DNA of 64,000 nt from contig CAZWUO010000001.1 of the NCBI GenBank assembly GCA_964636675.1, positions 639 to 64,638 of the forward strand. Direction: 5' to 3'. Below are positions 27,843 to 42,967 of this stretch, piece by piece; position 1 is the first letter of the stretch; every line of letters begins with the position of its first letter. The notes beneath the pieces are model-generated. The model ran no database searches, had not been told where the DNA came from, and saw only the letters and a program-made list of their open reading frames with translations. The DNA comes from an uncultured Ectothiorhodospiraceae bacterium. Its GTDB lineage: Bacteria; Pseudomonadota; Gammaproteobacteria; S012-40. The position numbers were made by a program, and so were the translations under genes.

Positions 27843-27924
27843 TTCGATGCGTAATATAGTGCAGGCACTGTGTATGCGGGTTGAAATAATGCGGAGTTTA
27901 TAATAAAAAAAGGTAATAAAAAAA

Positions 27925-27950
27925 GGGTGGCTAATAAGCCACCCTTTTTT
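27925..27950. terminator. Bidirectional rho-independent terminator (htpG 3' end and small minus-strand peptide gene)
   Basis: gggtggct-aataa-agccaccc flanked by an A-run upstream and a T-run downstream. Confidence 0.7.
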
Positions 27951-27971
27951 GATTCTGTTTATTCTTAACGC

Positions 27972-28043
27972 TTAAACAGAAGCCAAAGGTAGCAGTACGA
28001 AAAGTAATAGAGTACCGCCAAAAAAGATCAATGGAACTTGCAT
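27972..28043 (-). CDS. Candidate 23-aa hydrophobic peptide MQVPLIFFGGTLLLFVLLPLASV
   Basis: ATG 8 nt after the AGAGGAG SD. Ends at the bidirectional terminator. Below the ORF-track length cut-off. Confidence 0.35.
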   Translation of the reverse strand: MQVPLIFFGGTLLLFVLLPLASV

Positions 28044-28275
28044 TATGTGAACTCCTCTAAAAAGTAACATCCCAAATGCTCCCCTCCCAAAGGGAGCGCC
28101 CTGTAACTGTGAGCAATAACTCGAACAAATAATCAACATCTATAATAAAGTTAATTACTTGAAGATGTAACATAAACAAGTTTAATAATCTCTGCAAGCG
28201 TTATTTATAGAATCGCTTCTAAAGTGGTAATTATCATCAATATGAATTTGTCTCAGATCAGCTGAATAAAGACAT

Positions 28276-28304
28276 AAAAAAAGCCGGTATAAATACCGGC
28301 TTTT
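28276..28304. terminator. Bidirectional hairpin terminator
   Basis: aaaaaagccggtat-aaa-taccggctttt, a perfect 9-bp stem with flanking A-run and T-run. Confidence 0.5.
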
Positions 28305-28368
28305 AAATCACGTGTATAATATCTCACGTAACGCGATGCAATACGTGAGTGAATATGTCGAGTGGATT

Positions 28369-28473
28369 TTAGCCCATCGCCATACCTAAGAACATAAGTC
28401 CAAAAGTTATTACTATAAGGAAAACCACGATTATCGTATCGTCTTGGCTTACGTCAGTTCTTTGTTTTGCCAT
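28369..28473 (-). CDS. Candidate 34-aa single-TM peptide MAKQRTDVSQDDTIIVVFLIVITFGLMFLGMAMG
   Basis: ATG 9 nt after the AGAGG SD. Paralogous to the peptide at 28740..28844. A hairpin (ctcacgta...tacgtgag) and a terminator follow on the minus strand. Confidence 0.4.
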   Translation of the reverse strand: MAKQRTDVSQDDTIIVVFLIVITFGLMFLGMAMG

Positions 28474-28694
28474 TGGGTATACCTCTTTTATTCAAAATTG
28501 TTAGATATTTATAAACTAAAACATTAATGTAGCAAGACAAACATTAGCAGCAGCAGGATTCGAACGCAAGCAGGCACCCATAGAATATTTATGGGTAAGG
28601 GATAAGGGCAGTTTATTAACTGCTTTCAATGGGGAAACTGGTTAAACTATGTTCTTTTCTATCTCTCCAATATATTAGCAAGAATTGAATAATA

Positions 28695-28719
28695 AGAGGG
28701 TGCGGCAAATACACCCTCT
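28695..28719 (-). terminator. Hairpin terminator downstream of the small peptide gene 28740..28844
   Basis: agagggtg-cggcaaata-caccctct followed on the minus strand by a T/A-rich run. Confidence 0.45.
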
Positions 28720-28739
28720 TAGTAAGGTATGCCCTAATC

Positions 28740-28844
28740 CTAGGCCATATTAACGCCAATAATACCTAATACAAGCGTCATAACAGCTAGATAAACTACA
28801 AACAATGTATCGTGGGTATGAATTAGACCGTCATTCTGGCTCAT
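28740..28844 (-). CDS. Candidate 34-aa single-TM peptide MSQNDGLIHTHDTLFVVYLAVMTLVLGIIGVNMA
   Basis: ATG 7 nt after the AGAGGGG SD and its own hairpin terminator. Aligns with the 28369..28473 peptide: DT[LI][FI]VV[YF]L[AI]V[MI]T[LF].L..[IL]G..M[AG]. Confidence 0.45.
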   Translation of the reverse strand: MSQNDGLIHTHDTLFVVYLAVMTLVLGIIGVNMA

Positions 28845-29116
28845 GAGTGTTCCCCTCTATTTTATTAGTTAGCACGTGATTGCCATCAAAGGCGGATAAA
28901 CCATAGCAGTTTACTAATGTATAAATCAAGTATTTTTTATAAAATATAATGTGTGATAAATGGTAACCCTATGATTTATGGATTATTGCAGGGGCATAGC
29001 AAATAGGTGCTTAGGTTTAACAAATGAGGAAATCATATAAACCAAGTATTTTGCTTATGTAATGACACTTTTGCCAGATAACATCTTCATCACCGCGGAG
29101 AGTGATTGGTTTTGTT

Positions 29117-31639
29117 TTAACCATTTCTTCTATGTTTCTTTTTTTTCGCTTGTCCATGATTATTATATTTATGGGGCTTTTTATATTTTCTTTTATAAGA
29201 TTTCTTTTTTTTCCCATGATGCTTTCGAATCTTTACATGATGTTGTTCCATTTTGTGGTGCTTGTGGGCATATTTATGCGAGCGCTTTTTAGAATATTTT
29301 CGCAAGTGTTTTACTTCATAATAATATGTTTTTGATTTAATATTTCCAGATTCATCGCTTGCTGTCACTACAATGGTATATATTAAGTTTTCATTTGATC
29401 GAGGAATTCTGGTTTTTTTCAACCAGATATCCCATCCATCTTCGGTTTTTCTTATATCCCAAAATGGCTTATTGTACCGATGGCGTCTAGGATGTTTCTT
29501 AATATCCAGGTTAGTGGAAATGTTGATGTCTAGGTTTGGTGATTCATCAACGATGTCCTTTAAGCGATTAATGCTAAGCATGTGCTCGAGCTTACGATTT
29601 GGTGGCCAAAGTCTATTTTTAGTTTCAATGATCGTAAAAGTAGGAGCGGTAGTATCAATAATGATTATCTCTTGTACAGCAACACTTGTGTTTCCGTTGC
29701 TATCGGTTGCATGCCAAGTAACGAGTGTTTGACCAAGCGGCAACGCAGTTGGAGCATTATTAGTAATGGTTACTGGAAAGATATCTTCTGCTTGCGCCGA
29801 GCCAATATTAATTTTGGTTGCAAGACTAGTCGCCTCAGAAATAATATTTTCGGGTGTACTAAGAATAGGAGGTGTCGTATCAGCAACTTGAATGGTTGAT
29901 GTTAAGCTTGAGGCATTGCCACTTGCATCAATTGCACTCATATTTATATCGGTAAACCCGACCGGAAACCACGAGTCATTTATACTGATAGTGGTGTTAG
30001 GGATACTGCAATTGTCTGTTGCGTTGATCGTCACCAAGTAGTGGGCACCTTGTAACGAAGTGGCCTCTAACATGATGTACGATGGTGTGTGAATTTGGGG
30101 TGGTGTATAGTCGTTAATAGAAATTATTACATTATCTGAATCTAATGCATCCGAATTATCACGTACTTGTAAGTTAATGTTATGAATTCCGGTTGCCAAC
30201 GGAAGTACTGGATTCATTAAGTTATTGCTGCCAAAAGTGCCTGTCCAGGTATAGGCCAACGACTGCTCAGAGTCAGGATCGTTTGATTGGCTACCATCGA
30301 GTTGTATGTTTGTAGTAAGGCCGTTACACAATAAAACTTGATCAATTCCCGCATTTGCGACGGGCTGAATATTGGGTATGGTATCTCTCACACGAAGATT
30401 AATTTGGGTGTGATTATTCGAACCCAAATTTGACGCTGAAGACGAAAATGTCAACATCTCCCCGTTATCGTTTATTGCGCTAACGAAGTCAATATTAGCA
30501 TTCAGTTGCTGCCCTTGGTGAGTCAAACTGACTCGTTCGGTGGTACCTAAGATAGTATCGTAGACAAATAAATCGCTTGAATCGTTTGAGTCGTTGCTGA
30601 CCAAGTTGCTTGCTTTTGATACATATGACACAAAACGACCGTTATTACTCATTTTGGGTATTAGACTAACGTTGTTTGCTTGAATCCCCTCCGAGGATTT
30701 ACTGATGAGAATAATTGAATCGGTAGTTTTGTTGTACAAAAAAACATGTCTAAATGTTGCATTTGTACCAGCCACTAAATTCTTAGCGTCCGATATAAAT
30801 GCAATGTATTTTCCGTTGCCACTGATATAAGGGTTTCTATTGTTGGCGACAAGAGGGCTGCCATCAAAGGTTTTGCTGATTAACTCAGAAGTACCTGTTT
30901 CTCTGTCCCAAAGAAAGACATCATACTTATTGTTGTCATCAATCGGGTCAATGTTATTCGCAACAGAAATGTAACTGATGTATCTGCCATCATCACTGAT
31001 GCTTGGAGAATTGCTGTCCCCATTAGCGCTGGATCCATCAGGAGAGGATGAGATTAATTGTACCGAATTGTTAACTACATCAAATATGAATATATCGCGA
31101 AATTGATTGTTATCGTTAGGCGCTAGGTTTGTAGCTCTGGAGTGAAAAACGATATATTTTCCATTACCACTAATTTGAGATAACGAACTTATCCCATTCG
31201 GAATGCTTCCATCATGGGTTTTACTCACTAGTGTTGTAATGTTATTTGTTATATTTCTTAAAAATATATTACCCTTGCTTCCCGAGTTAGCGGTGAGATT
31301 GTTTGCAAAAGACTCGAACACTGCCAATGTCCCATTGCTATCTATATCTGCCCGAAGGCTATTTGCATTTCCTGGATCCCCTGAATTTGAAACACTTAAT
31401 CGAGTGAATTTATTTGTTGTTCGGTCAAGCAGATAGATGTTTCTATTTGTTACCCCATCATTTATAAGATTTCTGGCAGTAGATTCGAATACGATTCTAT
31501 TAGCCTTTGCGCTTATTGAGGGAGAATAGCTTGGACCATTTCCCAATTCGCTTCCATTCTTCGAAATTATAAATGTTTCAGCAGCATTTACCGCAAAACA
31601 AAACACGAATAGAAAACTATATTGGAACAGAGCTTTCAT
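29117..31639 (-). CDS. Secreted 840-aa protein: N-terminal PD40/TolB-like beta-propeller repeats, HYR/Ig-like modules and an extreme Lys/His-rich C-terminal tail
   Basis: GGAGG SD and signal peptide MKALFQYSFLFVFCFAVNAAE. Repeated NGKYI(V/A)F.S.A.NL units. HYR-like blocks (NCSIPNTTISINDSWFPVGFTDINMSAIDASGN, VTWHATDSNGNTS). Last 65 aa about 45% Lys and 20% His. Start overlaps the upstream gene's stop (ATGA). Confidence 0.7.
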   Translation of the reverse strand: MKALFQYSFLFVFCFAVNAAETFIISKNGSELGNGPSYSPSISAKANRIVFESTARNLINDGVTNRNIYLLDRTTNKFTRLSVSNSGDPGNANSLRADIDSNGTLAVFESFANNLTANSGSKGNIFLRNITNNITTLVSKTHDGSIPNGISSLSQISGNGKYIVFHSRATNLAPNDNNQFRDIFIFDVVNNSVQLISSSPDGSSANGDSNSPSISDDGRYISYISVANNIDPIDDNNKYDVFLWDRETGTSELISKTFDGSPLVANNRNPYISGNGKYIAFISDAKNLVAGTNATFRHVFLYNKTTDSIILISKSSEGIQANNVSLIPKMSNNGRFVSYVSKASNLVSNDSNDSSDLFVYDTILGTTERVSLTHQGQQLNANIDFVSAINDNGEMLTFSSSASNLGSNNHTQINLRVRDTIPNIQPVANAGIDQVLLCNGLTTNIQLDGSQSNDPDSEQSLAYTWTGTFGSNNLMNPVLPLATGIHNINLQVRDNSDALDSDNVIISINDYTPPQIHTPSYIMLEATSLQGAHYLVTINATDNCSIPNTTISINDSWFPVGFTDINMSAIDASGNASSLTSTIQVADTTPPILSTPENIISEATSLATKINIGSAQAEDIFPVTITNNAPTALPLGQTLVTWHATDSNGNTSVAVQEIIIIDTTAPTFTIIETKNRLWPPNRKLEHMLSINRLKDIVDESPNLDINISTNLDIKKHPRRHRYNKPFWDIRKTEDGWDIWLKKTRIPRSNENLIYTIVVTASDESGNIKSKTYYYEVKHLRKYSKKRSHKYAHKHHKMEQHHVKIRKHHGKKKKSYKRKYKKPHKYNNHGQAKKKKHRRNG

Positions 31640-32064
31640 AGTGAACCTCCATCTATCTCGCTGAATATAGGGAAATTCAGATTATCCTGAGTGCTGTTTT
31701 TTGCTTGTAAATCGAATACTAAAATGGGGTCTTGAGAAACGGAGCTTGCGGTTGTGTAAGTCGTAAAGCTCCAATAGGATTTGTACATACTCGAAATGGG
31801 TAAGTTTCCGATTTCGAGTATATGATTGGTTGGGTTACTCATTATATCGATACTACGAGGAATGAGAACGACGGAGTTAAAATTCTTCAAGGTGTTGTTA
31901 ATAATAGTGATCTCATAAACTGCGCTGGTGTAATCATCTTTCGAAAATACTGAAACCAAGCGATGTTTAACAGAGATAGCATTTTGCTCAGCCATCAAAT
32001 GACCTGGCCAAATTAATAAGACGCAAATCATAAATGCCAATATATACCTGTAATGATTCATCAC
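31636..32064 (-). CDS. Small secreted hypothetical protein (142 aa), translationally coupled to the downstream 840-aa gene
   Basis: Signal peptide (ILAFMICVLLIWPGHLMAEQ). The stop overlaps the start of the 29117..31639 gene. Confidence 0.55.
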   Translation of the reverse strand: MMNHYRYILAFMICVLLIWPGHLMAEQNAISVKHRLVSVFSKDDYTSAVYEITIINNTLKNFNSVVLIPRSIDIMSNPTNHILEIGNLPISSMYKSYWSFTTYTTASSVSQDPILVFDLQAKNSTQDNLNFPIFSEIDGGSL

Positions 32065-32080
32065 TATCCCAACCCCTCTT

Positions 32081-33946
32081 TTATTGCACTACTTCTAAAG
32101 CAATAGCGCCGTTAACCGTAATATCGTTGTTTACAAAATTTGAGTCTTCGACTGAATCGTTGACTGAATAAGTTAAGCCAACTCCAGCGGGATTATTGCT
32201 CGTTGGATCGGTTAGTGCGCTAAATGCACCATCAATCTGCCCGGTGGCTGAGCCAGATGCGCCTGTGTTTGCAAACATCGTAGTCATACTGCCGCTAAAG
32301 GTGGCGTTTGCATTGTTGATAGGAACGTTAATGGCTTGAGCGGTGATTTCATAATTTGTTGCATCAGGATCATTGATGTCTAACTTGATATCTGCAGATA
32401 TCGTTTGATTGGAAAAATTCGCGGTTAGGGAGGTTTGAGATCTGTTAAGTGTGCCGATATTTCCAAAGTTGTCGGTAGGTGAGGTATTGCCAATGACTGC
32501 ATAATGTGCAACACCGGTAGATGGCAAGGTAATTTGCTCTGCTGATTCATCCATTAACAACCAATGTAGTTTATTTTGGGTAAGATCGATGTTGGATGCT
32601 GTCGTGCCGTCTGATAGCTTCATGCTGCCAGATTCCCACCGCCCCCAAGAAATTCCGAGAGCTGCATTTGAACCACTATCTGCATTTTTTGCAGTTCCTA
32701 TGCTCACCGTTTGTTCTTCGGTAATTAAAGCACTGTTCAATATTTTAATCTTGAACGAAGTGAGTCGTTGGTTTGTGTCGATTTGAAAATCACTCGTTTT
32801 ACGGGAATATACTGCACTCGATATGTTCAAACCATTGTTGGAAAAAATGTTGTTAGATACTGCAATATTATTCTGAGAAATTACCGGTGGCATAATAATA
32901 TTGGGAGTGGATTCGTCCGTTGAAGAATCATTTGGAGGGGGAATACTAATACTGGCTTCAGTAGAGGCATCTTCTTTTGAATGTGTATTTGAGACGATTA
33001 ACAGAACATTTTTTTTGTCCTCAATGGCAGTTTCATTTGATTGCGCGAGTATTTCGGATGATTCAGTATTTCTGACTAACACCTCTTCTTCAAGTTTGTC
33101 ATCAACAAAAATATCATCTGATTTGACCGTTGAAATGATATCTTCTGATACCGAGCTATTTGTTACACGATTATTTTCGGGGTTGACGAATGAGTCTTGT
33201 TTGCCTGCGATTGATGTTGTTACTTTGGAGTTGTTAACGATGTCTTTTGTTATAGATTTTTCTGCAATATTGGAATCAGATTGATTTGATTTTATCGCAG
33301 CAAATAATAACTCTCCAGGTGCTGAATCTAAAAGCAGGGGTTCAGATGAGAAGTCTGGAACATAACCATATTCACTGGCATCAATTTCTACGCTGCCTCC
33401 TTCATTAGCTACTACAACTCCGCCAGCCATAACGCCAATATATAACCCATTATCGTTATTGCAGTCTTCGTCACACAATCGTGCGCTATAGTCTGTTCCT
33501 CTAATGCCTATTGTTGCGATTGGAGTTGCAACTTTATACGATTTTTTATTTGCTTCACCTATAGACCCGGTAACACTTCTAAAGCTTCCCTTTAACAAGT
33601 TGAAGAATGTTCTGTCATTTTCAATATTTTCATTAAAAGTGAATATGTCAATTCTAAATCGACTATTTGGCCTGATGGCAATAAGTCCACCATCGGCCAT
33701 TCTTAGTTGGGCTTGACCGTTTTCTGATGTTATAATTGTGTCTCCCTCATTAATATCATCACCTCGATAAAGTCGTTTTATCTGTTTCGAGTCAGAATTT
33801 TTTATATGTACACCACCCAGAGAAAATAAAACTTTTCCCGCAGCAGAATAGGCTGTTATAGGAATGAATAAAATAAATAACATAAAAATAGTTTGTAATT
33901 TAGTTGTGTTGTTTTGGAAAAAATAAACTGGGTTTTCGGTAGTCAT
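32081..33946 (-). CDS. Secreted 621-aa protein: signal-peptidase-I type leader, FecR-like N-domain, long Ser/Asn/Thr/Asp-rich linker, C-terminal beta-rich domain (candidate Slam-type cargo)
   Basis: AGGAGG SD. Leader MLFILFIPITAYSAAGK with no lipobox Cys. FecR-like block GKVLFSLGGVHIKNSD...GDDINEGDTIITSENGQAQLRMADGGLIAIRPNSRF. C-terminal 200 aa of alternating hydrophobic/polar strands (GVAHYAVIGN, LTANFSNQTISADIKLDI, ATFSGSMTTMFA, AGVGLTYSV) ending VVQ. Confidence 0.7.
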   Translation of the reverse strand: MTTENPVYFFQNNTTKLQTIFMLFILFIPITAYSAAGKVLFSLGGVHIKNSDSKQIKRLYRGDDINEGDTIITSENGQAQLRMADGGLIAIRPNSRFRIDIFTFNENIENDRTFFNLLKGSFRSVTGSIGEANKKSYKVATPIATIGIRGTDYSARLCDEDCNNDNGLYIGVMAGGVVVANEGGSVEIDASEYGYVPDFSSEPLLLDSAPGELLFAAIKSNQSDSNIAEKSITKDIVNNSKVTTSIAGKQDSFVNPENNRVTNSSVSEDIISTVKSDDIFVDDKLEEEVLVRNTESSEILAQSNETAIEDKKNVLLIVSNTHSKEDASTEASISIPPPNDSSTDESTPNIIMPPVISQNNIAVSNNIFSNNGLNISSAVYSRKTSDFQIDTNQRLTSFKIKILNSALITEEQTVSIGTAKNADSGSNAALGISWGRWESGSMKLSDGTTASNIDLTQNKLHWLLMDESAEQITLPSTGVAHYAVIGNTSPTDNFGNIGTLNRSQTSLTANFSNQTISADIKLDINDPDATNYEITAQAINVPINNANATFSGSMTTMFANTGASGSATGQIDGAFSALTDPTSNNPAGVGLTYSVNDSVEDSNFVNNDITVNGAIALEVVQ

Positions 33947-33958
33947 TCGGTCTACCTC

Positions 33959-35293
33959 CTATTGTATTTTCCATTGAACAGACAAATTTATTGAAAATCT
34001 GTCGTAATCAAATAGAGAAACGGTTGAAATATTTTTTATGTACTTTATTTGTGGAATAATACTTAAATTTTTTCTAATTATTATATTTATGCCACTGGAA
34101 AAATTTGCTTTTTTTTCTTTGCGAATTGTCCCAATAAATGGTTTGTTATAATTTGAAGTAGATAATTTTATCTGTGTGAAAAATTGTTTTTTCCCGCCTA
34201 AAAAATGGTTTGTTATGATTTTTGTATGTAAAGAATTTTTTTCATACGGCGATGATTTCAATTTTGGCGCGTCATATTCAATATATCCAGCCAATAAAGC
34301 GGTAGATGGAATAAATAATTTGTATGAAAATTTGGTGTTAATTTCGATTGATCCTTGGTAGCGATCACGTAATGAAAAATTCGATGCATGTGTGTAGTAA
34401 GATATTGTGGAGCTAGTACCGAATCTAATGGTTGGCGAAGCAAAGTAATTCCATTGTGCAGTCGATCTTATGATTCCGGTATTAAATTCGGTTCCCAGAT
34501 AAAATGCGGTGACTGATATATTTGTGTTAGTTGAAAATTTGAGTCTCTTATACGACATTCCGATTGAGGACATTGCACCCGACGAGTTTACAAATGACGC
34601 TCGATTGTATCGATTATCAAATATCGCTGCACTAAGATAAATGTCAGTTCGTTTGTTAGATGAATATGTTGCTGTATTATTCATTGTTAAGCCCATAAAC
34701 TCCGAAGGCGTTGCTTTACTTTCTTGGGTTAATATTAATCCAAGAAAGGATTCATTTTCTGTGGCTGAATTCACATTGTCGTCAAATCCGCCTTTTAGTG
34801 TGACGTAGGTCTCGAAATTAATTGGTTTTTCATACAGTTTGGCATTGATTTTTTTCAACGAAACTGTGATAAATTGTTGCAATTCTCGCGGTGGTTGCAA
34901 GCTTTGAGATATTTCAAATTGTCTTTTTGCTTGATGCAGTTCATGTGCTCGATAATACGCCCGACCTAACTCAAAATGAGCTCCACCGAAGTTCGGGTGT
35001 ATGGCTACGGATCTTTCTAAAGCGAATATAGCGATGCTGGTTTTTCCGGTTTCTAATGCGGATAAACCCAATAAATAGTCAAACTGAGGGTTGCCCGCGT
35101 TAGTTTCCGCTAAGGGGTTTAGCAGCGAGAATGCTCTTATAGATTGGTTATTTGCAATAAGAACTTCGGCTTTTTCCAATAGTTCTTTTAACACATTTTT
35201 ATTCGCGGCTTCATTAATAGATTCGCTTGCTGTTACCTTGGGCAAAAAAATGGATAAAGCGAGAAGGAGAAAAAGCCATTTTGTATTTTTCAT
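33959..35293 (-). CDS. Outer-membrane protein: signal peptide, periplasmic TPR repeats, C-terminal beta-barrel (Slam / DUF560-like surface-protein translocator candidate)
   Basis: Signal peptide MKNTKWLFLLLALSIFLPKVTASE. TPR-like helices (FDYLLGLSALETGKTSIAIFALERSVAIHPNFGGAHFELGRAYYRAHELHQAKRQFEISQSL). About 290-aa C-terminal region of amphipathic beta-strands with aromatic girdle residues. First gene of a 4-gene operon, 12-nt gap to the next gene. Confidence 0.7.
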   Translation of the reverse strand: MKNTKWLFLLLALSIFLPKVTASESINEAANKNVLKELLEKAEVLIANNQSIRAFSLLNPLAETNAGNPQFDYLLGLSALETGKTSIAIFALERSVAIHPNFGGAHFELGRAYYRAHELHQAKRQFEISQSLQPPRELQQFITVSLKKINAKLYEKPINFETYVTLKGGFDDNVNSATENESFLGLILTQESKATPSEFMGLTMNNTATYSSNKRTDIYLSAAIFDNRYNRASFVNSSGAMSSIGMSYKRLKFSTNTNISVTAFYLGTEFNTGIIRSTAQWNYFASPTIRFGTSSTISYYTHASNFSLRDRYQGSIEINTKFSYKLFIPSTALLAGYIEYDAPKLKSSPYEKNSLHTKIITNHFLGGKKQFFTQIKLSTSNYNKPFIGTIRKEKKANFSSGINIIIRKNLSIIPQIKYIKNISTVSLFDYDRFSINLSVQWKIQ

Positions 35294-35619: not shown

Positions 35620-35732
35620 TTTAAGATAAATTGCTTTCAAGTCAACTTGTCGAGCAACCGATAAACGAGTGGGTAATGGTCATAAATCAAATAAAACCTT
35701 GAGATACAAACGGTAATAACGGAGAAAACACG

Positions 35733-36029
35733 ATGTCGGTAACGAGTAAGATAGATGGTGACAATGTGATGATTACAATCAGTGGGAGGTTTAATTTTAA
35801 TGATCATGTACAATTTAGAAATGCTTATAAAGATGTGCCTCCGAATGCTACTTACACAATGGATATGAGCAATACGGAATATATGGATAGTTCTGCTTTA
35901 GGAATGTTACTTCTGCTACGTGAGCATGCAGGAGGAGACTCATCTGATATTATTATTGCAGGTAGTCCCCCAGACATAAAGAAAATACTCAATATCGCAA
36001 ATTTTCAAAAACTGTTTGAAATACGTTAG
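35733..36029 (+). CDS. STAS-domain anti-sigma-factor antagonist (HsbA/SpoIIAA-like)
   Basis: 98 aa. STAS pattern with phosphorylatable Ser in DSSALGMLLLL. Confidence 0.75.
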   Translation: MSVTSKIDGDNVMITISGRFNFNDHVQFRNAYKDVPPNATYTMDMSNTEYMDSSALGMLLLLREHAGGDSSDIIIAGSPPDIKKILNIANFQKLFEIR

Positions 36030-36043
36030 TTTTTTTTAATAAC

Positions 36044-37750
36044 ATGAAAGTATTAGTGGTCGATGATGATGCAACGAATAGGCTCGTCTTAAAGGGCTTA
36101 CTCGAAAAAGAAGATCATGATGTTATGCTGGCAGTAAACGGTGTTGAGGCTATTCAACAGTATGAAAATGGCAGTCCAGACCTGATTTTAATGGATGTTA
36201 TGATGCCAGAAATGGATGGCTACGAGGCGACCAGAGAAATCAAAAAGAGGTGTGGTAGCCGATTTGTTCCGATAATATTTTTAACCGCAGTTAGTGGTAA
36301 TGAAGCGTTAGTAACCTGTCTCGAATATGGTGGTGACGATTATATCGGGAAACCTTTCAACCGAACCGTATTAAGCGCAAAAATTGAAGCAATGAACCGC
36401 ATTGTTTCTCTTTATTATCAAATCCAAAACCAAAAAGAAGAGCTTGAAACCCATAAGCGTCATGTTCAGCGCGAAACTGAAGTAGCAGAGAAAATATTTA
36501 ATGGTATTCTTGAGCGCAGTGATTTAAATGTAGACTTTATCAATACCTTAAGACGTTCAGCCGAAGCATTTAATGGTGATATCGTGCTTGCCACGCGTAA
36601 TCCAAACGGGGGGATGAATATATTAGTGGGTGATTTTACAGGTCATGGTTTAGCCGCTGCTATTGGAGCAATGCCTGTCGCTGATGTGTTTTATGGAATG
36701 TCCAAAAAAGGCTTTGAGCTTGAAGACATTGTATCGGAAATAAATAAAAAATTACGTGTTGTCTTACCCATGGGGAGATTTTTGGCGGCGTGTATTATTC
36801 ATGTGGATACACGTTGCGAATACCTAAAAATATGGAACGGAGGAATGCCAGACGTTCTTATTTACCGACCGAGTGCGAAACAAGTAGTAGAATACTTGCC
36901 TTCTGAGCACGTTCCGTTGGGAATCTCTTCTCCTGTTCAGTTTGAAACGCAAGCCACCCGGGTGAAAATCAGCCCTGGCGACTATTTATATATTTATTCT
37001 GACGGTGTCGTTGAAACCACAAACGAACACGATGAGTTATTTGGAATGGATAGATTGGTTGAAGTTATTACTACGTTTGATGGCAACGAGGTTATCAGTG
37101 AATTAGAGGCATCTTTAAGTCGGTTCTCTAATACGCTTCCGCAAGCTGATGATATTACTTTAATGGAGTTTCATTGTAATCCAACTCATTTATTGCAACT
37201 CGATAATGAGATATCAGTTGGTAAAACATATGCAACCAGTTGGAGTATGTCGTTTATTTTTGAAACAGATACCTTACAGCGATTAGATCCAGTCACTTTT
37301 TTAATGAAAACCTTGAGCGAAATACAAGGCCTGCGAAGTCACAGTCAAAGTTTGTTTATGATCATTTCAGAGTTGTTTAGCAATGCGCTTGAGCATGGTG
37401 TGCTTGGCTTAGATTCGAAGTTAAAGACGACGCCTGAGGGATTTGCGCAATATTATTTTTTACGAGAAACTTTATTAAAAAAGATGAAATATGCTTATAT
37501 AAAGTTCAGTTTTTCACAGAAAATCATCGGTAGAGGAGGTGAAATAACCATCGGGGTTGAGGACTCAGGAGATGGGTTTGACTATGCTTCGTTAGGTGGG
37601 GAGAAACAATCAATGCCGCCTGAAAGTGTTAAATCGGGACGCGGACAGGTGCTTATTGCTGATTTGTGTGAGACTATTACCTATAAAGGAAAAGGAAATG
37701 TGGTTGAAGCCGTTTATTCTTGGAATGATACCCCCCTTATCGCGCATTAA
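36044..37750 (+). CDS. Three-domain partner-switching regulator: REC receiver + PP2C (SpoIIE/RsbU-like) phosphatase + RsbW-like GHKL serine kinase (HsbR-like)
   Basis: REC (MKVLVVDDD...DLILMDVMMPEMDG). PP2C block (GDFTGHGLAAAIGAMPV...YIYSDGVVE). GHKL N-box ELFSNALEHG, G1 DSGDGFD, G2 GRGQVLIA. Confidence 0.8.
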   Translation: MKVLVVDDDATNRLVLKGLLEKEDHDVMLAVNGVEAIQQYENGSPDLILMDVMMPEMDGYEATREIKKRCGSRFVPIIFLTAVSGNEALVTCLEYGGDDYIGKPFNRTVLSAKIEAMNRIVSLYYQIQNQKEELETHKRHVQRETEVAEKIFNGILERSDLNVDFINTLRRSAEAFNGDIVLATRNPNGGMNILVGDFTGHGLAAAIGAMPVADVFYGMSKKGFELEDIVSEINKKLRVVLPMGRFLAACIIHVDTRCEYLKIWNGGMPDVLIYRPSAKQVVEYLPSEHVPLGISSPVQFETQATRVKISPGDYLYIYSDGVVETTNEHDELFGMDRLVEVITTFDGNEVISELEASLSRFSNTLPQADDITLMEFHCNPTHLLQLDNEISVGKTYATSWSMSFIFETDTLQRLDPVTFLMKTLSEIQGLRSHSQSLFMIISELFSNALEHGVLGLDSKLKTTPEGFAQYYFLRETLLKKMKYAYIKFSFSQKIIGRGGEITIGVEDSGDGFDYASLGGEKQSMPPESVKSGRGQVLIADLCETITYKGKGNVVEAVYSWNDTPLIAH

Positions 37751-37904
37751 AAGAAAATCAACAGGCGCTAACAAATAGATAATAATGATAATTCTGTGTA
37801 AGCTAGCATCATGACTCCTGGATTCATTTATCACCAATGTATTTTACTGGAGAATATCAACATATCATGCTGAATTAGTTACATAATAATAAGGGGGGTG
37901 ATCT

Positions 37905-38588
37905 TTGATCGTTGTTATAGCAGATGATCATGCCATTGTCAGGGAAGGTGTTATTTATTCTTTAAAGACTCATTTTGGCGAAGAGACACAGGTTTTAGAA
38001 GCAGAAGACTCTCCGAGTTTAGTCGCATTACTTGAGCAAAATAAAAATATCGATCTCATCTTACTGGATCTCATGATGCCAGGTGCAAACGGGCTTTCCG
38101 TGTTAAGAAAAATATGTAATGAATGGCCTGGAAACTCCGTAGTGGTGTTGTCCGCATCAGAAGACTCTACGCTGATGCGTAAATCAATTGATATAGGCGC
38201 CGCAGGCTTTATTCCAAAATCATCACCTCGAGAGGTCATGATGAGTGCTATTAGGTTAGTGCTTGCTGGAGGAGTATATATACCGCCTAAAAGTTTATTG
38301 TCCATAGAAGCAGTCTCAACTTCCTCCGAAGCAACGGAAAATAATAAGTTACCTGATCCAAAAATACTCGCTCCCAAGCTAACCGATAGACAACGACAGG
38401 TATTGATTGGTATCGCTGAAGGCAAAACGAATAGAGAGATCGGAGCAGGGCTAGAACTGTCAGAATATACCATCAAGATTCATGTAACGGCTATATTCAA
38501 AAAACTGCAGGTGAACAATCGCATGCAATCTGTGTTAGTTGCTAAAGAGTTAGGCTTATTCAAGGTGGGTGACCTCACGCCAGACTAA
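37905..38588 (+). CDS. NarL/FixJ-family response regulator (REC + LuxR-type HTH)
   Basis: TTG start after aaggggggtga. REC (DLILLDLMMPGANG). C-terminal LuxR HTH (LTDRQRQVLIGIAEGKTNREIGAGLELSEYTIKIHVTAIFKKL). Confidence 0.8.
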   Translation: MIVVIADDHAIVREGVIYSLKTHFGEETQVLEAEDSPSLVALLEQNKNIDLILLDLMMPGANGLSVLRKICNEWPGNSVVVLSASEDSTLMRKSIDIGAAGFIPKSSPREVMMSAIRLVLAGGVYIPPKSLLSIEAVSTSSEATENNKLPDPKILAPKLTDRQRQVLIGIAEGKTNREIGAGLELSEYTIKIHVTAIFKKLQVNNRMQSVLVAKELGLFKVGDLTPD

Positions 38589-38784
38589 GTGTTTTATTCA
38601 TTTATCGCGTAATGCCCTGAATATTTTTATATCTAAAGATCGCCTAACGGTACCAATCTTAGATTGCCCATTATCTCACCTTCCATTCGGCCCAGAATTA
38701 CTTAGTATTACCAGGGAGCAAAATCCTTCTGACACCGAATAAATGCGCACTCTGCATGCTGTTCAACTGTGGGTTCTAGGATAA

Positions 38785-39537
38785 TTGACGATTATGCAAA
38801 AAAGAAGTAGTGAATCTTCAAAGTACATCGCTTTGGTTGCTGAAGATCATAAATATAATATGATATTGATGGCGAGCTTGTTAGAGAAAAAGAGTGTTAC
38901 TGTTATTCAGGCACGCAATGGTAAGGCCGCCGTTGAGCAATATTTGGCAAATAAAGTGGATATTATATTTATGGATATACACATGCCAGTCATGGACGGC
39001 ATTGAAGCGATTAAAAAGATTCGGACCTTAGAAAAGGGGCAAAATCACGTGCCTATTGTAGTGCTTACGGCCGATGTTTTTATTCGGGAAAATACAGGCT
39101 TAGACACTACTCTAATTGATGAAATTTTACTAAAGCCTATCGTTAGCCAAGATTTATGGAGAGCTTTCGAAAAATTAGCCATCAAAAATTCTCTATCTGA
39201 AAAATCTTGTGAGGCTAAATCGATGCCACAAGCGAAAAGTCCTCAAACAGTCATTTCCAAACATTCTCATAAATTACCCGATGTGCTTAAAGAAAAATTT
39301 ATTAAAGAAGTACACTTATTATATGGGTTAGTTGAGGAGCAATATCGTCTAGGTAATTCAGATAAATTGCAAGAATTACTGCATAAGTTAGCGGGTATGA
39401 GCGGATGTTTTGACGCGACAGAAATGACCGGCATTTGCAATGAGTTGTTGTCCGCGATTAAGAACGAAGATTTAGTGGCAATTGATTTGGCTTTTCAAAA
39501 GTTAACCCAGTATAACGCTGAGTTACCTACCCATTAA
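38785..39537 (+). CDS. REC receiver fused to a C-terminal Hpt phosphotransfer domain (HptB-like function)
   Basis: REC (DIIFMDIHMPVMDG) and a C-terminal Hpt-like helix with LHKLAGMSGCFDA (the HxxKG motif). Confidence 0.75.
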   Translation: MTIMQKRSSESSKYIALVAEDHKYNMILMASLLEKKSVTVIQARNGKAAVEQYLANKVDIIFMDIHMPVMDGIEAIKKIRTLEKGQNHVPIVVLTADVFIRENTGLDTTLIDEILLKPIVSQDLWRAFEKLAIKNSLSEKSCEAKSMPQAKSPQTVISKHSHKLPDVLKEKFIKEVHLLYGLVEEQYRLGNSDKLQELLHKLAGMSGCFDATEMTGICNELLSAIKNEDLVAIDLAFQKLTQYNAELPTH

Positions 39538-39751
39538 GGAATGGGCACGAAATATAGAGATTTAGCCGAATGAATAAGTCTGACCATAAATCATGATACA
39601 TCAGTGATTAAGATCTGGTAAGATCCTATACTTTGAAATCTGTAGTTTAGCGTTAATTCTGGTTTTAGATGAACAACTGAATGCTTATTATACTATATCA
39701 ATAAGCAAACACGCTGGGCTGGGATAGTTCATCAGATAAGAAATAGTTCTT

Positions 39752-42700
39752 TTGGTTATCGCGGATACGGGATGTTTTGTGATTGCGCCTAATGAGATTA
39801 TTGATAAAAACCTTCCAAGGAATGAACTGCTTAGTCGGTTGAGCAGGTTGCACACTAAGTCCGTTGCTTGGGTGAGTGGCCCACCCGGTGCGGGGAAAAC
39901 AAATCTTGTTGCAACTTATGTGAAAAGGCAAACATCTGTCATTATATGGTACGAGGTAGAGGTTGGAGACGAGGACCCCGCGACATTTTTCCATTATTTA
40001 TCAGAGAATATAAAGAAAAAATGTGGCTTAGCTGAGAACTGGATTAACCCTTTAAAACCGGAATACCTATTATCTATTGATGTTTACGCAAGGCAGTTTT
40101 TTCAATTGTTGTGTCAGAATATCGATGAATCTTTTACGTTGGTTTTTGACCAATATCAGGAATTACCCAATAAATCCATTATTCATGATCTCATCAAGCA
40201 CTTCATTCGTGCCATACCTAGCCACAGTTCGATTATTTTTATTAGCCGATCTGACCCACCGGCAGCACTCGCACGTTTTGTTATCAATCAAGAAATTGAA
40301 TGTATAGGTTGGAATGATCTACGTTTTTCGGAAAATGAAATTGATGCGCTGGGACATTTGTGGGGATTCTGTCATGATGAAATGCAACTATTAGAAGAAG
40401 CAAAGTCGCAGATAAACGGGTGGGTAGCTGGTGCAGTAATCATTTGCGATTTTATTCGCAACGTTAAAAAAACGCCAGCCATAAAAGATTTATCTAACTC
40501 GGACATTTTGTTGAATTATTTTTCCGGTGAAATATTAAATAAACTCAGCGAGATCGAAAAGAATTTTTTATTTCAAATATCTTTCTTGCCGCGTTTTTCT
40601 GTTGCAGCAGCAATAGAGCTTACAGGAATCGATGACGCGCTACATATTATTGAGCAGTTACACAGTAATCATTCTTTTACTGAGAAGTTAGGTTATTCAT
40701 CAAATGAATATCAGCTACACCCTTTATTCAGAAGGTTTTTACGCTCGCGCATAAAGGATGAGTTATCTAAATCAGATATTTTAAATATTAAACACAGAGC
40801 GGCTTCTTGTTTAGAAAAACAAGGACTCGTCGAGCATGCCATCACACTTTGGTATGAAACCGAGCAATGGGACATGCTTGCGCGGATTGCAGAAAGCTAT
40901 ACCGACACACTGATTGAGCAAGGTCGCGGTAGTACGGTTGCAAAGTGGTTTCAACAAATACCGCCTGCTGTTGTCGATAAATACCCTTGTTTTGCTTATT
41001 GGAGAGCAAGGGCAATTATGCCTTATGACACCAAAGAGGCGCTAAGACTATACCGGTTTGCCTACGAAAAATATGTGCTTTTAGATACTGATGTTAATAA
41101 AAAATGGTTATGTTGGGCAGGATGTGTCGCTACCTATATACACGACTGGAAATCATTTGATGATCTGGATTATTGGATTAGTGAATTACCTTTTTTGCCT
41201 TGTAGCTTCCCACCAGCTTGTAGTATCGAAACCAAAGCCAGTGTTACTTCTGCTATGTTTATTGCGTTATTATTTAGGCAACCCGATCACTCACACTTTA
41301 TTTTGTGGGAAGAGGCCAGCCTAGCATTAGTAAAGAGTGAGTTGAATATCAATCAAAAAATCACGACTGGAAATTGCTTGGTTCTTTATTATTCTTGGAT
41401 TGCCGATTTCCCCAAGTGTCAAGTCATTATGGAAACCATGCGCGAGAATATTTCTCAGCCAGACGTATTGCCGCTTACTCGAATTATTTGGCATTCTATG
41501 GAGGCGATGTATGCTTGGCTGGGCTTGAAACCGCAGCGATGTGAAGAGATTGTTTCCAAGGGCTTAGCATTGGCGAATGATTATGGAATTAAGATTTGGG
41601 ATTTTATGCTCAACGCCCAAGGGGCTTACGGAAAACTTTCTTCTGGACAATTAGCGGGTGCTACCAAATATTTGAAAAATATGTCACGATCCGTTAGTGG
41701 GGGAAGGTCTCTTGATGCATCTCAGTATTACTATTTGAGTGCATGGGTTGCGGTATTAAAAAAGGATTACCCCCAGGCTTTAGAAAAAATTAAATTTGCG
41801 AGTGATTTGACCAAGGACGCGGGATCTCCATTTCCTACTACTTTTGTAGACATTGCTCTGTCGCAGGTGTTGTTTGAGCAAGGCGAAAAATCACGTGCGC
41901 GCGTGATTATTAAACATGTGAACAGCATAGCAGATTCGTTGCGTAGTCGGCATTTTAAACATCATAGTCTTTTAGTGTTGGCTTATTTTGATTTAATGGA
42001 TGGGAGTTACGAGCAAGGAATTAATTATCTAGAGCAAGGATTCAGATTCGCCCGTGAAAATCATTTTTTGAGTCTTATATGGTGGCGTCCTGAGCTTATG
42101 TCTAAGCTTTGCGGAATTGCTTTGTTGCATAATATCGAAGCGGAGTACGTCAAAGAGTTAATTATAAAAAATGAATTAACTCCCGATGAAAAATATCTTG
42201 GACTAGAGCAATGGCCTTGGCAAGTAAAAATCACTTCATTCAATCATTTTACTTTATTCAAAAATGACATACTTTTTGGGTCTTCCGGAAAATCTCAAGT
42301 AAAACCTTTAGATTTATTAAAGGTGTTACTGGCTTATGGAGGCAAAAGCGTTAGTGTCACAAAAATCACAGACTGTTTGTGGCCTGATGCAGACGGTGAT
42401 ATGGGGCAGCACTCATTTAGTACTACGTTATATAGGTTACGCAAACTATTAGGCTGTGAAAATTCCTTACTTCTCAATAATGCGCAATTGAGTTTAAATC
42501 CTATATTTTGCTGGACAGATGTCTGGGCAATTGAAATGCTTGAGAAAAAAATAGAGCAGAAACTACTGGAAGCTACATTCGATCCAAGCACAGCAGCGTG
42601 TTTAGAGATCGAGCTATTTAATTTGTATCAGGGTGCATTTTTAAGTCTGGAAAGTGAAAAACCTTGGTTTTTTATAAAGCGCGAAAAAGAAAGAAATCGT

Positions 42701-42967
42701 TTTATTCGGATCGCAGAACATATAGGGAAATATTGGCTCGATAATTCGCAGATAGATAATGCGATTCGTTTTTATCAAAAAGCGATCGAAATCGATTACT
42801 TGGTGGAATCGTTTTACCAACAGCTTATCCTTGCTTATCAACGTGCCGGACGAAAAGCCGAGGCTAATTCAGTTTATAAACAATGTGAGCAAGCATTAAG
42901 TGACTTTGACGACATAAGGCCGAGCGAGAAGACCAAGAAAATTTTTCGTGACTGTATGAGTTCTTAA
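39752..42967 (+). CDS. Large STAND-type regulator: N-terminal NTPase (MalT/NB-ARC-like), central helical/TPR region, C-terminal OmpR-type winged helix plus BTAD-like domain
   Basis: Walker A GPPGAGKTN and Walker B LVFDQYQE. C-terminal wHTH-like block LLKVLLAYGGKSVSVTKITDCLWPD...TTLYRLRKLLG followed by TPR-like helices (IRFYQKAIEIDYLVESFYQQLILAYQRAGRKAEA). TTG start. Confidence 0.7.
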   Translation: MVIADTGCFVIAPNEIIDKNLPRNELLSRLSRLHTKSVAWVSGPPGAGKTNLVATYVKRQTSVIIWYEVEVGDEDPATFFHYLSENIKKKCGLAENWINPLKPEYLLSIDVYARQFFQLLCQNIDESFTLVFDQYQELPNKSIIHDLIKHFIRAIPSHSSIIFISRSDPPAALARFVINQEIECIGWNDLRFSENEIDALGHLWGFCHDEMQLLEEAKSQINGWVAGAVIICDFIRNVKKTPAIKDLSNSDILLNYFSGEILNKLSEIEKNFLFQISFLPRFSVAAAIELTGIDDALHIIEQLHSNHSFTEKLGYSSNEYQLHPLFRRFLRSRIKDELSKSDILNIKHRAASCLEKQGLVEHAITLWYETEQWDMLARIAESYTDTLIEQGRGSTVAKWFQQIPPAVVDKYPCFAYWRARAIMPYDTKEALRLYRFAYEKYVLLDTDVNKKWLCWAGCVATYIHDWKSFDDLDYWISELPFLPCSFPPACSIETKASVTSAMFIALLFRQPDHSHFILWEEASLALVKSELNINQKITTGNCLVLYYSWIADFPKCQVIMETMRENISQPDVLPLTRIIWHSMEAMYAWLGLKPQRCEEIVSKGLALANDYGIKIWDFMLNAQGAYGKLSSGQLAGATKYLKNMSRSVSGGRSLDASQYYYLSAWVAVLKKDYPQALEKIKFASDLTKDAGSPFPTTFVDIALSQVLFEQGEKSRARVIIKHVNSIADSLRSRHFKHHSLLVLAYFDLMDGSYEQGINYLEQGFRFARENHFLSLIWWRPELMSKLCGIALLHNIEAEYVKELIIKNELTPDEKYLGLEQWPWQVKITSFNHFTLFKNDILFGSSGKSQVKPLDLLKVLLAYGGKSVSVTKITDCLWPDADGDMGQHSFSTTLYRLRKLLGCENSLLLNNAQLSLNPIFCWTDVWAIEMLEKKIEQKLLEATFDPSTAACLEIELFNLYQGAFLSLESEKPWFFIKREKERNRFIRIAEHIGKYWLDNSQIDNAIRFYQKAIEIDYLVESFYQQLILAYQRAGRKAEANSVYKQCEQALSDFDDIRPSEKTKKIFRDCMSS

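Follow-up and report, generated by a model that had tools for sequence, protein, structure and literature searches.

A Lys/His-rich C-terminal tail and a remodelled cadherin-like terminal domain in a predicted exported propeller protein of an uncultured gammaproteobacterium

Is an extremely Lys/His-rich tail at the C-terminus of a predicted exported bacterial protein genuine, and, if so, what does it do there? The question is raised by an 840-residue protein encoded in a 64,000-nucleotide stretch of DNA (the window; contig CAZWUO010000001.1, positions 639–64,638) from an uncultured Ectothiorhodospiraceae bacterium. The original prediction, made from the letters alone, had singled out this tail, proposed that it binds polyanions or metals, and suggested a host-binding adhesin or toxin-like factor encoded in a Slam-like operon. 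We find that the tail is genuine. Judged from sequence comparisons, it represents the most extreme case of a feature shared across a family, in which a cadherin-like terminal domain is followed by a short basic tail, and it goes together with a remodelling of the domain next to it. Coordinates of all features are given in Table 1.

The tail proper, whose start was set by the end of the final folded domain at His778, comprises 62 residues, of which 34% are Lys, 18% His (11 residues) and 10% Arg, with a net charge of +26. For the last 65 residues, about 45% Lys and about 20% His had been estimated. The Lys value was too high (33.8%, 22/65; Lys and Arg together make up 43%), while the His value stands (18.5%). 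Arg (9.2%) and Tyr (7.7%) are also frequent in these 65 residues; Lys, Arg and His together account for 61.5%, and only two residues are acidic. The tail contains three HH pairs and HKH/HKYAH spacings, no Cys, two Ala, one Pro, and no hydrophobic stretch. Among all open reading frames (ORFs) of the window with at least 150 residues, the richest 62-residue stretch contains 40 Lys, Arg or His in the tailed protein, compared with 18 in the runner-up. Against a background of 13.2%, the count in the tail has a binomial P of ∼1.5e-18, making it the strongest such outlier in the window; for its 11 His, P is ∼1e-7.

The reading frame of the tail was checked at the codon level, as had been advised. Frame 0 is open throughout, while frame 2 contains many stops and frame 1 contains one; the alternative frames lead either to early stops or to an unrelated hydrophobic read-through. 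The orthologues P0003 and P0002 (58–64% identity), which come from independent assemblies, carry the same kind of tail immediately after the conserved “...V-x-H” domain end. A frameshift in an A-rich stretch, named beforehand as one scenario that would undo the finding, is thus ruled out. The DNA encoding the tail is 52% A, and no DNA tandem repeats were found within it. Our searches detected no similarity between the tail and PDB, Pfam or other solved or curated sequences. Neither NCBIfam nor Pfam matched it to known C-terminal sorting signals (LPXTG, PEP-CTERM, GlyGly-CTERM, MYXO-CTERM, or the C-terminal domain (CTD) of the type IX secretion system (T9SS)). An amphipathic helix of the antimicrobial peptide type was considered for the tails of the window protein and P0003 and was rejected, as their hydrophobic moments were no better than those of shuffled sequences.

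The architecture of the whole protein was examined using a full-length AlphaFold2 model built with 64 homologues (mean predicted local distance difference test score, pLDDT, of 84.7). A signal peptide without a lipobox is followed by a seven-bladed propeller (residues ∼30–417 in the model), a stalk of immunoglobulin (Ig)-like domains, a terminal domain (a sandwich modelled at residues 667–776) and the tail; the protein is not a lipoprotein. In Pfam searches, PD40 and HYR score above the gathering threshold (HYR, PF02494, 31.0 bits against a cutoff of 21.7, residues 587–652), whereas matches to PKD and Big domains are weak. A second HYR-like sandwich (residues 515–586) is seen in the model only. 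PD40 and HYR modules on an exported protein, as originally proposed, are therefore borne out by these Pfam scores and by the Sec-type signal peptide read from the sequence. Foldseek matches the propeller to those of S9 peptidases, tricorn and TolB. Identity with TolB itself was rejected: there are only PD40 repeats, the modelled propeller begins directly behind the signal peptide with no N-terminal α/β domain, and the surrounding genes are not those of a tol-pal operon. We classify the protein as a propeller protein of the PD40 type.

The terminal domain is modelled as a seven-stranded cadherin-like sandwich with the cadherin/Ig fold. The tail has a pLDDT of ∼40 in the full-length model and of 53–66 in a model of the terminal domain alone, where only a weak helix (residues 781–806) appears. 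At the sequence level, the tailed protein has no match among solved structures. Charge is unevenly distributed along the chain, with −26 in the body, +5 in the terminal domain and +26 in the tail, forming a charge dipole. The number of HYR repeats differs among orthologues, whose lengths range from 829 to 1,365 residues. According to the model, the protein has an adhesin-like head-stalk-base build.

To place the terminal domain, a profile of the domain without its tail (A1) was searched against 1.84 billion representative proteins, which returned 2,818 relatives (E<1e-3). Neither Pfam nor NCBIfam has a model specific to this domain, and no paper on its motif (WPPNHK and variants) was found in the literature. 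The family consensus reads LWPPNHKMV...TSNEPxNGxGDGNTxxDW...LRAERxGxxxGRxYTI...VPHD. The 104 retrieved proteins that match the profile over its full length nearly always have the domain in last position, and the tail that follows has a median length of 8 residues, typically ending ...TV.VPHDQGKGKKK. Tails of up to 13 residues (78 proteins) contain 24% Lys and 20% Gly when pooled, and 63 of the 78 are net positive. Another 16 proteins have long low-complexity tails of 25–107 residues (pooled Lys 24%, His 13%, Arg 12%, Asp 12%), all of them net positive; the window tail is the most basic (+26) and the least acidic of these. The tail was thus mistaken for an isolated oddity, as it belongs to a basic tail found across the family and coupled to remodelling of the adjacent domain.

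Tail composition is preserved as the sequence drifts, with only two tail columns invariant among four orthologues. P0002, a 1,352-residue orthologue, has a 107-residue tail with about four tandem copies of DDDDDERSERRHRKAHK, a polyampholyte version that apparently arose by repeat expansion. Members of the terminal-domain family (P0127–P0272, for example P0169, P0132, P0185 and P0180) carry diverse heads, including PD40, FG-GAP and SBBP propellers. In one relative, a T9SS-type CTD is placed after the terminal domain, and the terminal domain is therefore not itself a T9SS sorting signal. Outside the family, charged C-terminal tails rich in Lys, Asp, His and Ser, for example HEKSKKGDDDHKSKSGKKDDDRKSDSKKGKKHD, are also seen on HYR-repeat proteins whose last domain is a different one. 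These proteins are found at L017, L018/L019, L021 and L022 (Zetaproteobacteria/Mariprofundus and one gammaproteobacterial metagenome-assembled genome, MAG) and at L015 (Oceanospirillales). Charged C-terminal tails may be common on HYR proteins of marine bacteria.

The long tails coincide with a change in the folded domain itself. The canonical pole of the family is rich in Asp, Asn and Gly, and is reminiscent of cadherin Ca2+ sites. In an alignment (A5), the canonical SNEPxNGxGDGNTxxD / RAER / PHD elements are replaced in the window protein by TNLDIKKHPRRHRYNKPF / KKTR / VKHL; at the corresponding positions of the longer consensus, the window protein reads TNLDIKKHPRRHRYNKPFWD, LKKTRIPRSNENLIYTI and VKHL. 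The acidic Ca2+-ligand motif of cadherin-like domains is absent from the window protein, which has Lys, Arg and His at those positions. The sandwich topology of the models suggests that both remodelled loops, C-D and E-F, probably share one pole of the domain with the C-terminus.

Loop and tail vary together. Across 98 family members, and uncorrected for phylogeny, the His content of the loop correlates with that of the tail (Spearman 0.74), and loop net charge correlates with tail length (Spearman 0.44). All listed tails of at least 25 residues sit behind a His/Lys/Arg-rich loop that replaces GDGNT. In a sister clade (P0007–P0013), the short tail is kept and the loop is inflated to a basic, disordered segment of 62–65 residues. 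In the gammaproteobacterial clade to which the window operon belongs, the acidic Ca-site-like loop has been replaced by His, Lys and Arg, and either the tail or the loop expands to 25–107 residues. P0169, which has a canonical acidic-pole domain, lies outside such a gene cluster. Since loop and tail co-vary and the same pole is remodelled, the tail is likely one part of a larger basic, His-rich “foot”.

Table 1. Positions of the features discussed, numbered in the window unless another locus is named.
Feature	Coordinates	Strand	Residues or size	Remarks
PD40-PKD-HYR protein ORF	29117..31639	minus	840 aa	Single ORF; C-terminus exactly as in the original prediction
Sec-type signal peptide	31580..31639	minus	∼1–19/20	MKALFQYSFLFVFCFAVNA/AE (...FAVNA/AE); read from sequence; N-termini of homologues equivalent
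Seven-bladed PD40-type β-propeller head	30389..31579	minus	∼21–417	Pfam PD40; AlphaFold2 pLDDT >90, seven four-stranded blades
Stalk: PKD-like and two HYR/HYR-like Ig domains	29657..30388	minus	418–661	Net charge −20; Pfam and AlphaFold2
Terminal cadherin-like Ig sandwich	29306..29656	minus	662–778	Uncurated family, almost always C-terminal
Basic C-D loop of terminal domain	29462..29512	minus	∼710–726	DIKKHPRRHRYNKPF; alignment A5; stands in for acidic SNEPxNGxGDGNTxxD
E-F loop of terminal domain	29387..29416	minus	∼742–751	KKTRIPRSNEN; alignment A5 and strand topology of the models; stands in for RAERxGxxxGR
Polybasic His/Lys/Arg/Tyr-rich C-terminal tail	29120..29305	minus	779–840	Predicted disordered; stop codon 29117–29119
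Two A8 runs inside the tail coding sequence	29139–29146 and 29205–29212	minus		Both KKKK runs coded AAA AAA AAG AAA
Small exported protein	31636..32064	minus	142 aa	Conserved; ATGA overlap with the PD40-HYR gene
Acidic FecR-like exported protein	32081..33946	minus	621 aa	Net charge −33; Pfam FecR; alignment A4; Ser/Asp/Glu-rich linker, conserved ∼150-residue C-terminal domain
Tetratricopeptide repeat (TPR) and β-barrel outer-membrane protein	33959..35293	minus	444 aa	Remote member of the T11SS/Slam (PF04575) family
CHASE2 cyclase genes at other loci	L003 13234–15483; L004 12570–14810; L080 11655–13851; L082 12332–14557; L083 10204–12459

The tailed gene belongs to a conserved group, with the genes for the small, FecR-like and TPR-barrel proteins upstream on the same strand. 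It is preceded by GGAGG and overlaps the upstream ORF for the 142-residue protein by four nucleotides (ATGA), in agreement with the translational coupling proposed earlier. The trio of FecR-like, small and PD40-HYR proteins recurs in seven other loci (L001, L003, L004, and L080–L083). A gene for the outer-membrane protein (OMP) is present in six of the seven; L081 (the P0167 locus) keeps the trio without an adjoining OMP gene, and the OMP is thus not an obligatory neighbour. In five of the seven, a CHASE2-guanylate/adenylate cyclase gene lies directly after or near the PD40-HYR gene. That FecR-domain proteins and CHASE2 sensors are linked in genomes has been reported before (PMC5192318). We found no CHASE2 gene or remnant in the window, either among ORFs of at least 90 residues or in the gap downstream of the tailed gene, and L001 likewise lacks the cyclase gene. 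STAS, REC-PP2C-kinase, GerE-type and Hpt regulators flank the operon in the window, as they do at L001 and L081; in the window and L001 they lie upstream. The last domain and tail together contain 9–15 His at all eight operon loci.

The four operon proteins (29117–35293) are 45–58% identical between the window and L001, compared with 68–88% for the flanking regulators (35703–42967) and 50% for a truncated kinase remnant. Thus, the exported module evolves much faster than its neighbours. The ORF at 38785–39537 encodes only REC and Hpt (250 residues), and the syntenic gene of L001 encodes an 897-residue hybrid histidine kinase (HAMP, HisKA, HATPase, REC, Hpt). On this comparison, the window gene seems to have lost its sensor and kinase part by deletion. 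Downstream, a 1.27-kb gap (27843–29116) without any ORF of at least 60 residues separates the stop codon of the tail from the convergent htpG. It contains two terminator-like hairpins, at 27919–27950 (bidirectional) and 28279–28304. Rfam returned only sub-threshold hairpin matches for the gap in E-value mode, and no match for the whole window at gathering scores. No model of anti-phage defence matched. No description of this cluster was found in the literature searched.

Whether the operon belongs to the type XI secretion system (T11SS), as its description as Slam-like implies, depends on the OMP. It does not match PF04575 (DUF560/SlipAM, a 14-stranded barrel) directly, even at E≤10, and direct Slam membership by Pfam therefore fails; it is regained only through transitive and profile-profile homology. 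The homologue P0123 (E 2.8e-19, 91% coverage) passes PF04575 with 33.3 bits (cutoff 22), and hhalign aligns the operon OMP profile to proteins positive for PF04575 from one end to the other (probability 100%, E 1.5e-47, 424 columns). Residues 35–134 have several TPR-family matches, all just below cutoff (TPR_2, 26.5 vs 27), and a weak match to TPR_Slam (E 0.046), in keeping with the N-terminal periplasmic TPR domain of T11SS/Slam proteins. Because of the end-to-end profile alignment, the OMP is most readily regarded as a divergent member of the T11SS family.

The Slam-like assignment is supported for the OMP as a remote, full-length homologue, and not for the tailed protein as its cargo. T11SS cargo is defined in the literature by a C-terminal eight-stranded barrel. 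The tailed protein was rejected as a T11SS/Slam cargo: it has no lipobox, no such barrel and no TbpB_B_D match, and its C-terminus consists of a sandwich and a disordered tail. The FecR-like proteins of the window and the seven other loci share a ∼150-residue C-terminal domain (32081–32536 in the window; alignment A4). Sub-threshold matches of this domain to TbpB_B_D were seen in two of eight proteins (best E 0.081) and to FHBP_C in one of eight (E 0.068), while a profile search against PDB gave only spurious matches to EF-Tu. By these matches, the FecR-like neighbour would be a likelier, though unproven, T11SS cargo than the tailed protein. The T11SS surveys examined do not mention FecR (including FecR-domain cargo), PD40, HYR or CHASE2.

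The FecR-like proteins of the window and L001 only also contain an insertion of ∼220 residues (residues ∼216–470; 32537–33301), the first ∼130 residues of which form an acidic Ser/Asp/Glu-rich linker (net −13). FecR-like proteins from clusters with a short-tailed PD40-HYR protein lack this insertion. A pairing of the insertion or its linker with tail length was considered and is not significant over the eight loci.

From the tail, its predicted disorder, the fold, the family distribution, the co-variation of loop and tail, and the conservation of the operon, we infer a localisation, a binding partner and a tethering role for this end of the protein. Polyanion or metal binding, the class of function first proposed, remains the most reasonable prediction for such a composition. 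Within it, we tentatively favour, with rather less than even confidence, a multivalent cationic foot, tunable through its His residues, that would anchor the base of the head-stalk protein to an anionic partner in the envelope. Also in its favour are the charge dipole, a base that follows a stalk of variable length, the His shared by all eight operon loci where a canonical-domain relative lies outside such an operon, the retained composition of drifting tails, and the lack of insertions or deletions between 95%-identical variants. The tailed protein would first be exported by the Sec pathway. The foot, formed by the remodelled loops and the tail, would then bind an anionic envelope component through multivalent electrostatic contacts; candidates are lipopolysaccharide (LPS) or a different anionic polymer of the surface, and also an acidic protein as partner. 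With so many His residues, this binding would respond to pH or to divalent metals. With its base held by the foot, the protein would extend its acidic HYR/PKD stalk and seven-bladed propeller away from it. The protein may form one module with its co-encoded partners (FecR-like protein, small protein, T11SS-like OMP). In relatives, this module may signal through the CHASE2 cyclase; in the window genome, the neighbouring partner-switch regulators may perhaps take that part.

Several observations weigh against such an anchoring foot. The last domain with its tail is close to net neutral (rich in Lys, His and Asp) in several members of the clade, and His content is better conserved than net charge, which fits metal binding at least as well. 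Charge complementarity between the tail and the acidic FecR-like protein looked promising at four loci and is not significant at eight (Spearman −0.44, p 0.28). The loop/tail correlations ignore phylogeny. That the canonical pole binds Ca is suggested only by its fold and motifs, along with weak Ca_tandemer matches. Between variants that are 95% identical, the tail differs at 15.6 and the body at 4.3 positions per 100 residues (∼3.6-fold), with no insertions or deletions, and such a fast-evolving tail could be under weak constraint. In addition, the protein could stay in the periplasm.

The His residues are also the basis of the strongest alternative, in which the tail and the remodelled loops bind, sense or buffer a transition metal (Zn/Ni/Cu/Co/Fe). 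We consider this possible but doubtful. In its detailed form, which we regard as equally doubtful, the oxygen ligands of the Ca-site-like loop would have given way to nitrogen ligands in His clusters, and the tail would add multi-His sites of low affinity that take up metal or signal its presence to the FecR-like/CHASE2 module. His enrichment is indeed the most conserved feature of the operon clade, being present at every locus whatever the net charge. Canonical loops mostly lack His, and GDGNT is swapped for loops of the “DHKHKHKxDH” type; the HH pairs, the HKH/HKYAH spacings and the His excess of the window tail would fit as well. In published work, T11SS systems that have been characterised are linked to the uptake of metals and haem. 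However, the tail contains more Lys than His (34% against 18%), and there is neither Cys nor a defined metal motif. No metal transporter adjoins the operon consistently, an RND/CzcB pair being found in one locus only. The composition fits pH-dependent polyanion binding equally well.

A less likely explanation treats the tail as low-complexity sequence that is for the most part neutral. Slippage and drift in an A-rich region would have lengthened a short basic tail already present in the ancestor, and the added length would be tolerated without doing anything specific that the short tail does not. The variation in tail length among relatives (8–107 residues), the internal tandem repeats of P0002, the rapid divergence of the tail relative to the body, and the A-rich DNA with its two A8 runs would all be expected from such a process. 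Against it, the frame has been kept open although another frame is full of stops, the window tail has no DNA tandem repeat, and tail length is unchanged between the 95%-identical variants. Moreover, deeply diverged members share a net-positive Lys/His/Arg composition, and changes in the tail go along with substitutions in the loops of the folded domain.

The host-directed adhesin or toxin-like factor of the original prediction, with a tail that binds heparan sulfate or nucleic acids, is improbable. The adhesin-like architecture and the KKKK and KRKYKK motifs, which resemble heparin-binding motifs or nuclear localisation signals, speak for it, as do the Lys-rich tail of HBHA (PMC3293801) and the Arg-rich regions of NHBA (PMC8677018, PMC5360712), which bind such ligands. 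No toxin or defence domain was found, however, and the conserved partners are FecR-like and CHASE2 signalling proteins, with STAS/PP2C partner-switch genes nearby in the window. Relatives with a named source are environmental gammaproteobacterial MAGs, and other neighbouring genes encode a nitrite reductase, a molybdenum oxidoreductase and signalling proteins rather than virulence factors. An assembly or sequencing artefact is hardly credible: two A8 homopolymers do lie inside the tail, but it begins right after the conserved domain end, upstream of both, equivalent tails exist in orthologues from other assemblies, and the other frames yield stops or hydrophobic read-through.

Polybasic tails on bacterial surface proteins are already known, and the tail by itself is unremarkable. 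What appears to be undescribed in the literature searched is the family of terminal domains, the change of their pole from acidic to basic, and the conserved T11SS-like/FecR-like/CHASE2 cluster. The family points to a general, unstudied means of capping or tethering secreted multi-Ig proteins. The pole switch in one clade, which tracks the cluster of T11SS-like OMP, FecR-like protein and, often, CHASE2 cyclase, offers a concrete and testable case of a disordered region co-evolving with a folded surface. Should the basic foot mediate assembly, it would widen the range of T11SS cargo and provide a handle on CHASE2 signalling.

A bolder and much more speculative proposal is that the cluster is an undescribed cell-envelope signalling device. 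A divergent T11SS-type OMP would handle FecR-domain cargo with a TbpB-like C-terminal barrel. The propeller-stalk protein would dock through a His/Lys latch, switchable by pH or metal and evolved from a Ca-site-like pole. Signals would be fed to the CHASE2 cyclase in relatives, or to the STAS/PP2C partner switch in the window genome. If true, the cluster would supply the CHASE2 domain, whose ligands a 2016 paper described as unknown, with its first candidate partners upstream, and T11SS with a new class of cargo.

The tail may be compared with several known systems, of which the polybasic appendages of HBHA and of Neisseria proteins come nearest in function. HBHA, the mycobacterial heparin-binding haemagglutinin of a host-associated actinobacterium, has tandem Lys/Ala/Pro repeats at its C-terminus, is methylated and is not known to contain His in this region. 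The window tail is rich in Lys, His, Arg and Tyr, has no repeats and differs in envelope and gene context; there is no sequence homology, and the likeness is one of composition and function only. It lies in a disordered, Lys-rich C-terminal appendix on an adhesin, which in HBHA binds polyanions (heparan sulfate) by multivalent electrostatics (PMC3293801). Polybasic segments on surface proteins of a diderm bacterium, those of Neisseria NHBA and of the IgA-protease α-peptide, bind heparin and extracellular DNA and promote biofilm formation (PMC8677018, PMC5360712). Those segments are short, internal and Arg-rich, are carried by a lipoprotein or an autotransporter of a host-restricted organism, and have neither His enrichment nor a cadherin-like terminal domain.

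In composition (Lys, His, Arg, Tyr, Gly, Ser), the tail is closest, and very similar, to certain eukaryotic secreted peptides and proteins, with which it shares no homology. These polycations, histatin-5, kininogen domain 5 and histidine-rich glycoprotein, are disordered, and Zn2+/Cu2+ and pH tune how they bind to anionic surfaces or membranes. Bacterial His-rich C-terminal tails that bind Ni or Zn are found in the cytoplasmic proteins HspA/GroES of Helicobacter, SlyD and Hpn, where they are rich in His, Cys and Asp and contain few Lys. The window tail, by contrast, is predicted to be exported, is dominated by Lys and is free of Cys. The likeness to T11SS (Slam) loci consists of exported proteins encoded beside an OMP that is a remote homologue of PF04575-positive proteins; the tailed protein differs from T11SS cargo in lacking a lipobox and a C-terminal eight-stranded barrel. 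Finally, cadherin-like, Ca2+-stabilised Ig repeats are also found in bacterial fibrillar adhesins, for example the CDHL modules of SraP. In the window domain, the acidic loop positions are occupied by Lys, Arg and His, and the domain serves as a single C-terminal cap with a basic tail, rather than as a tandem repeat of a stalk.

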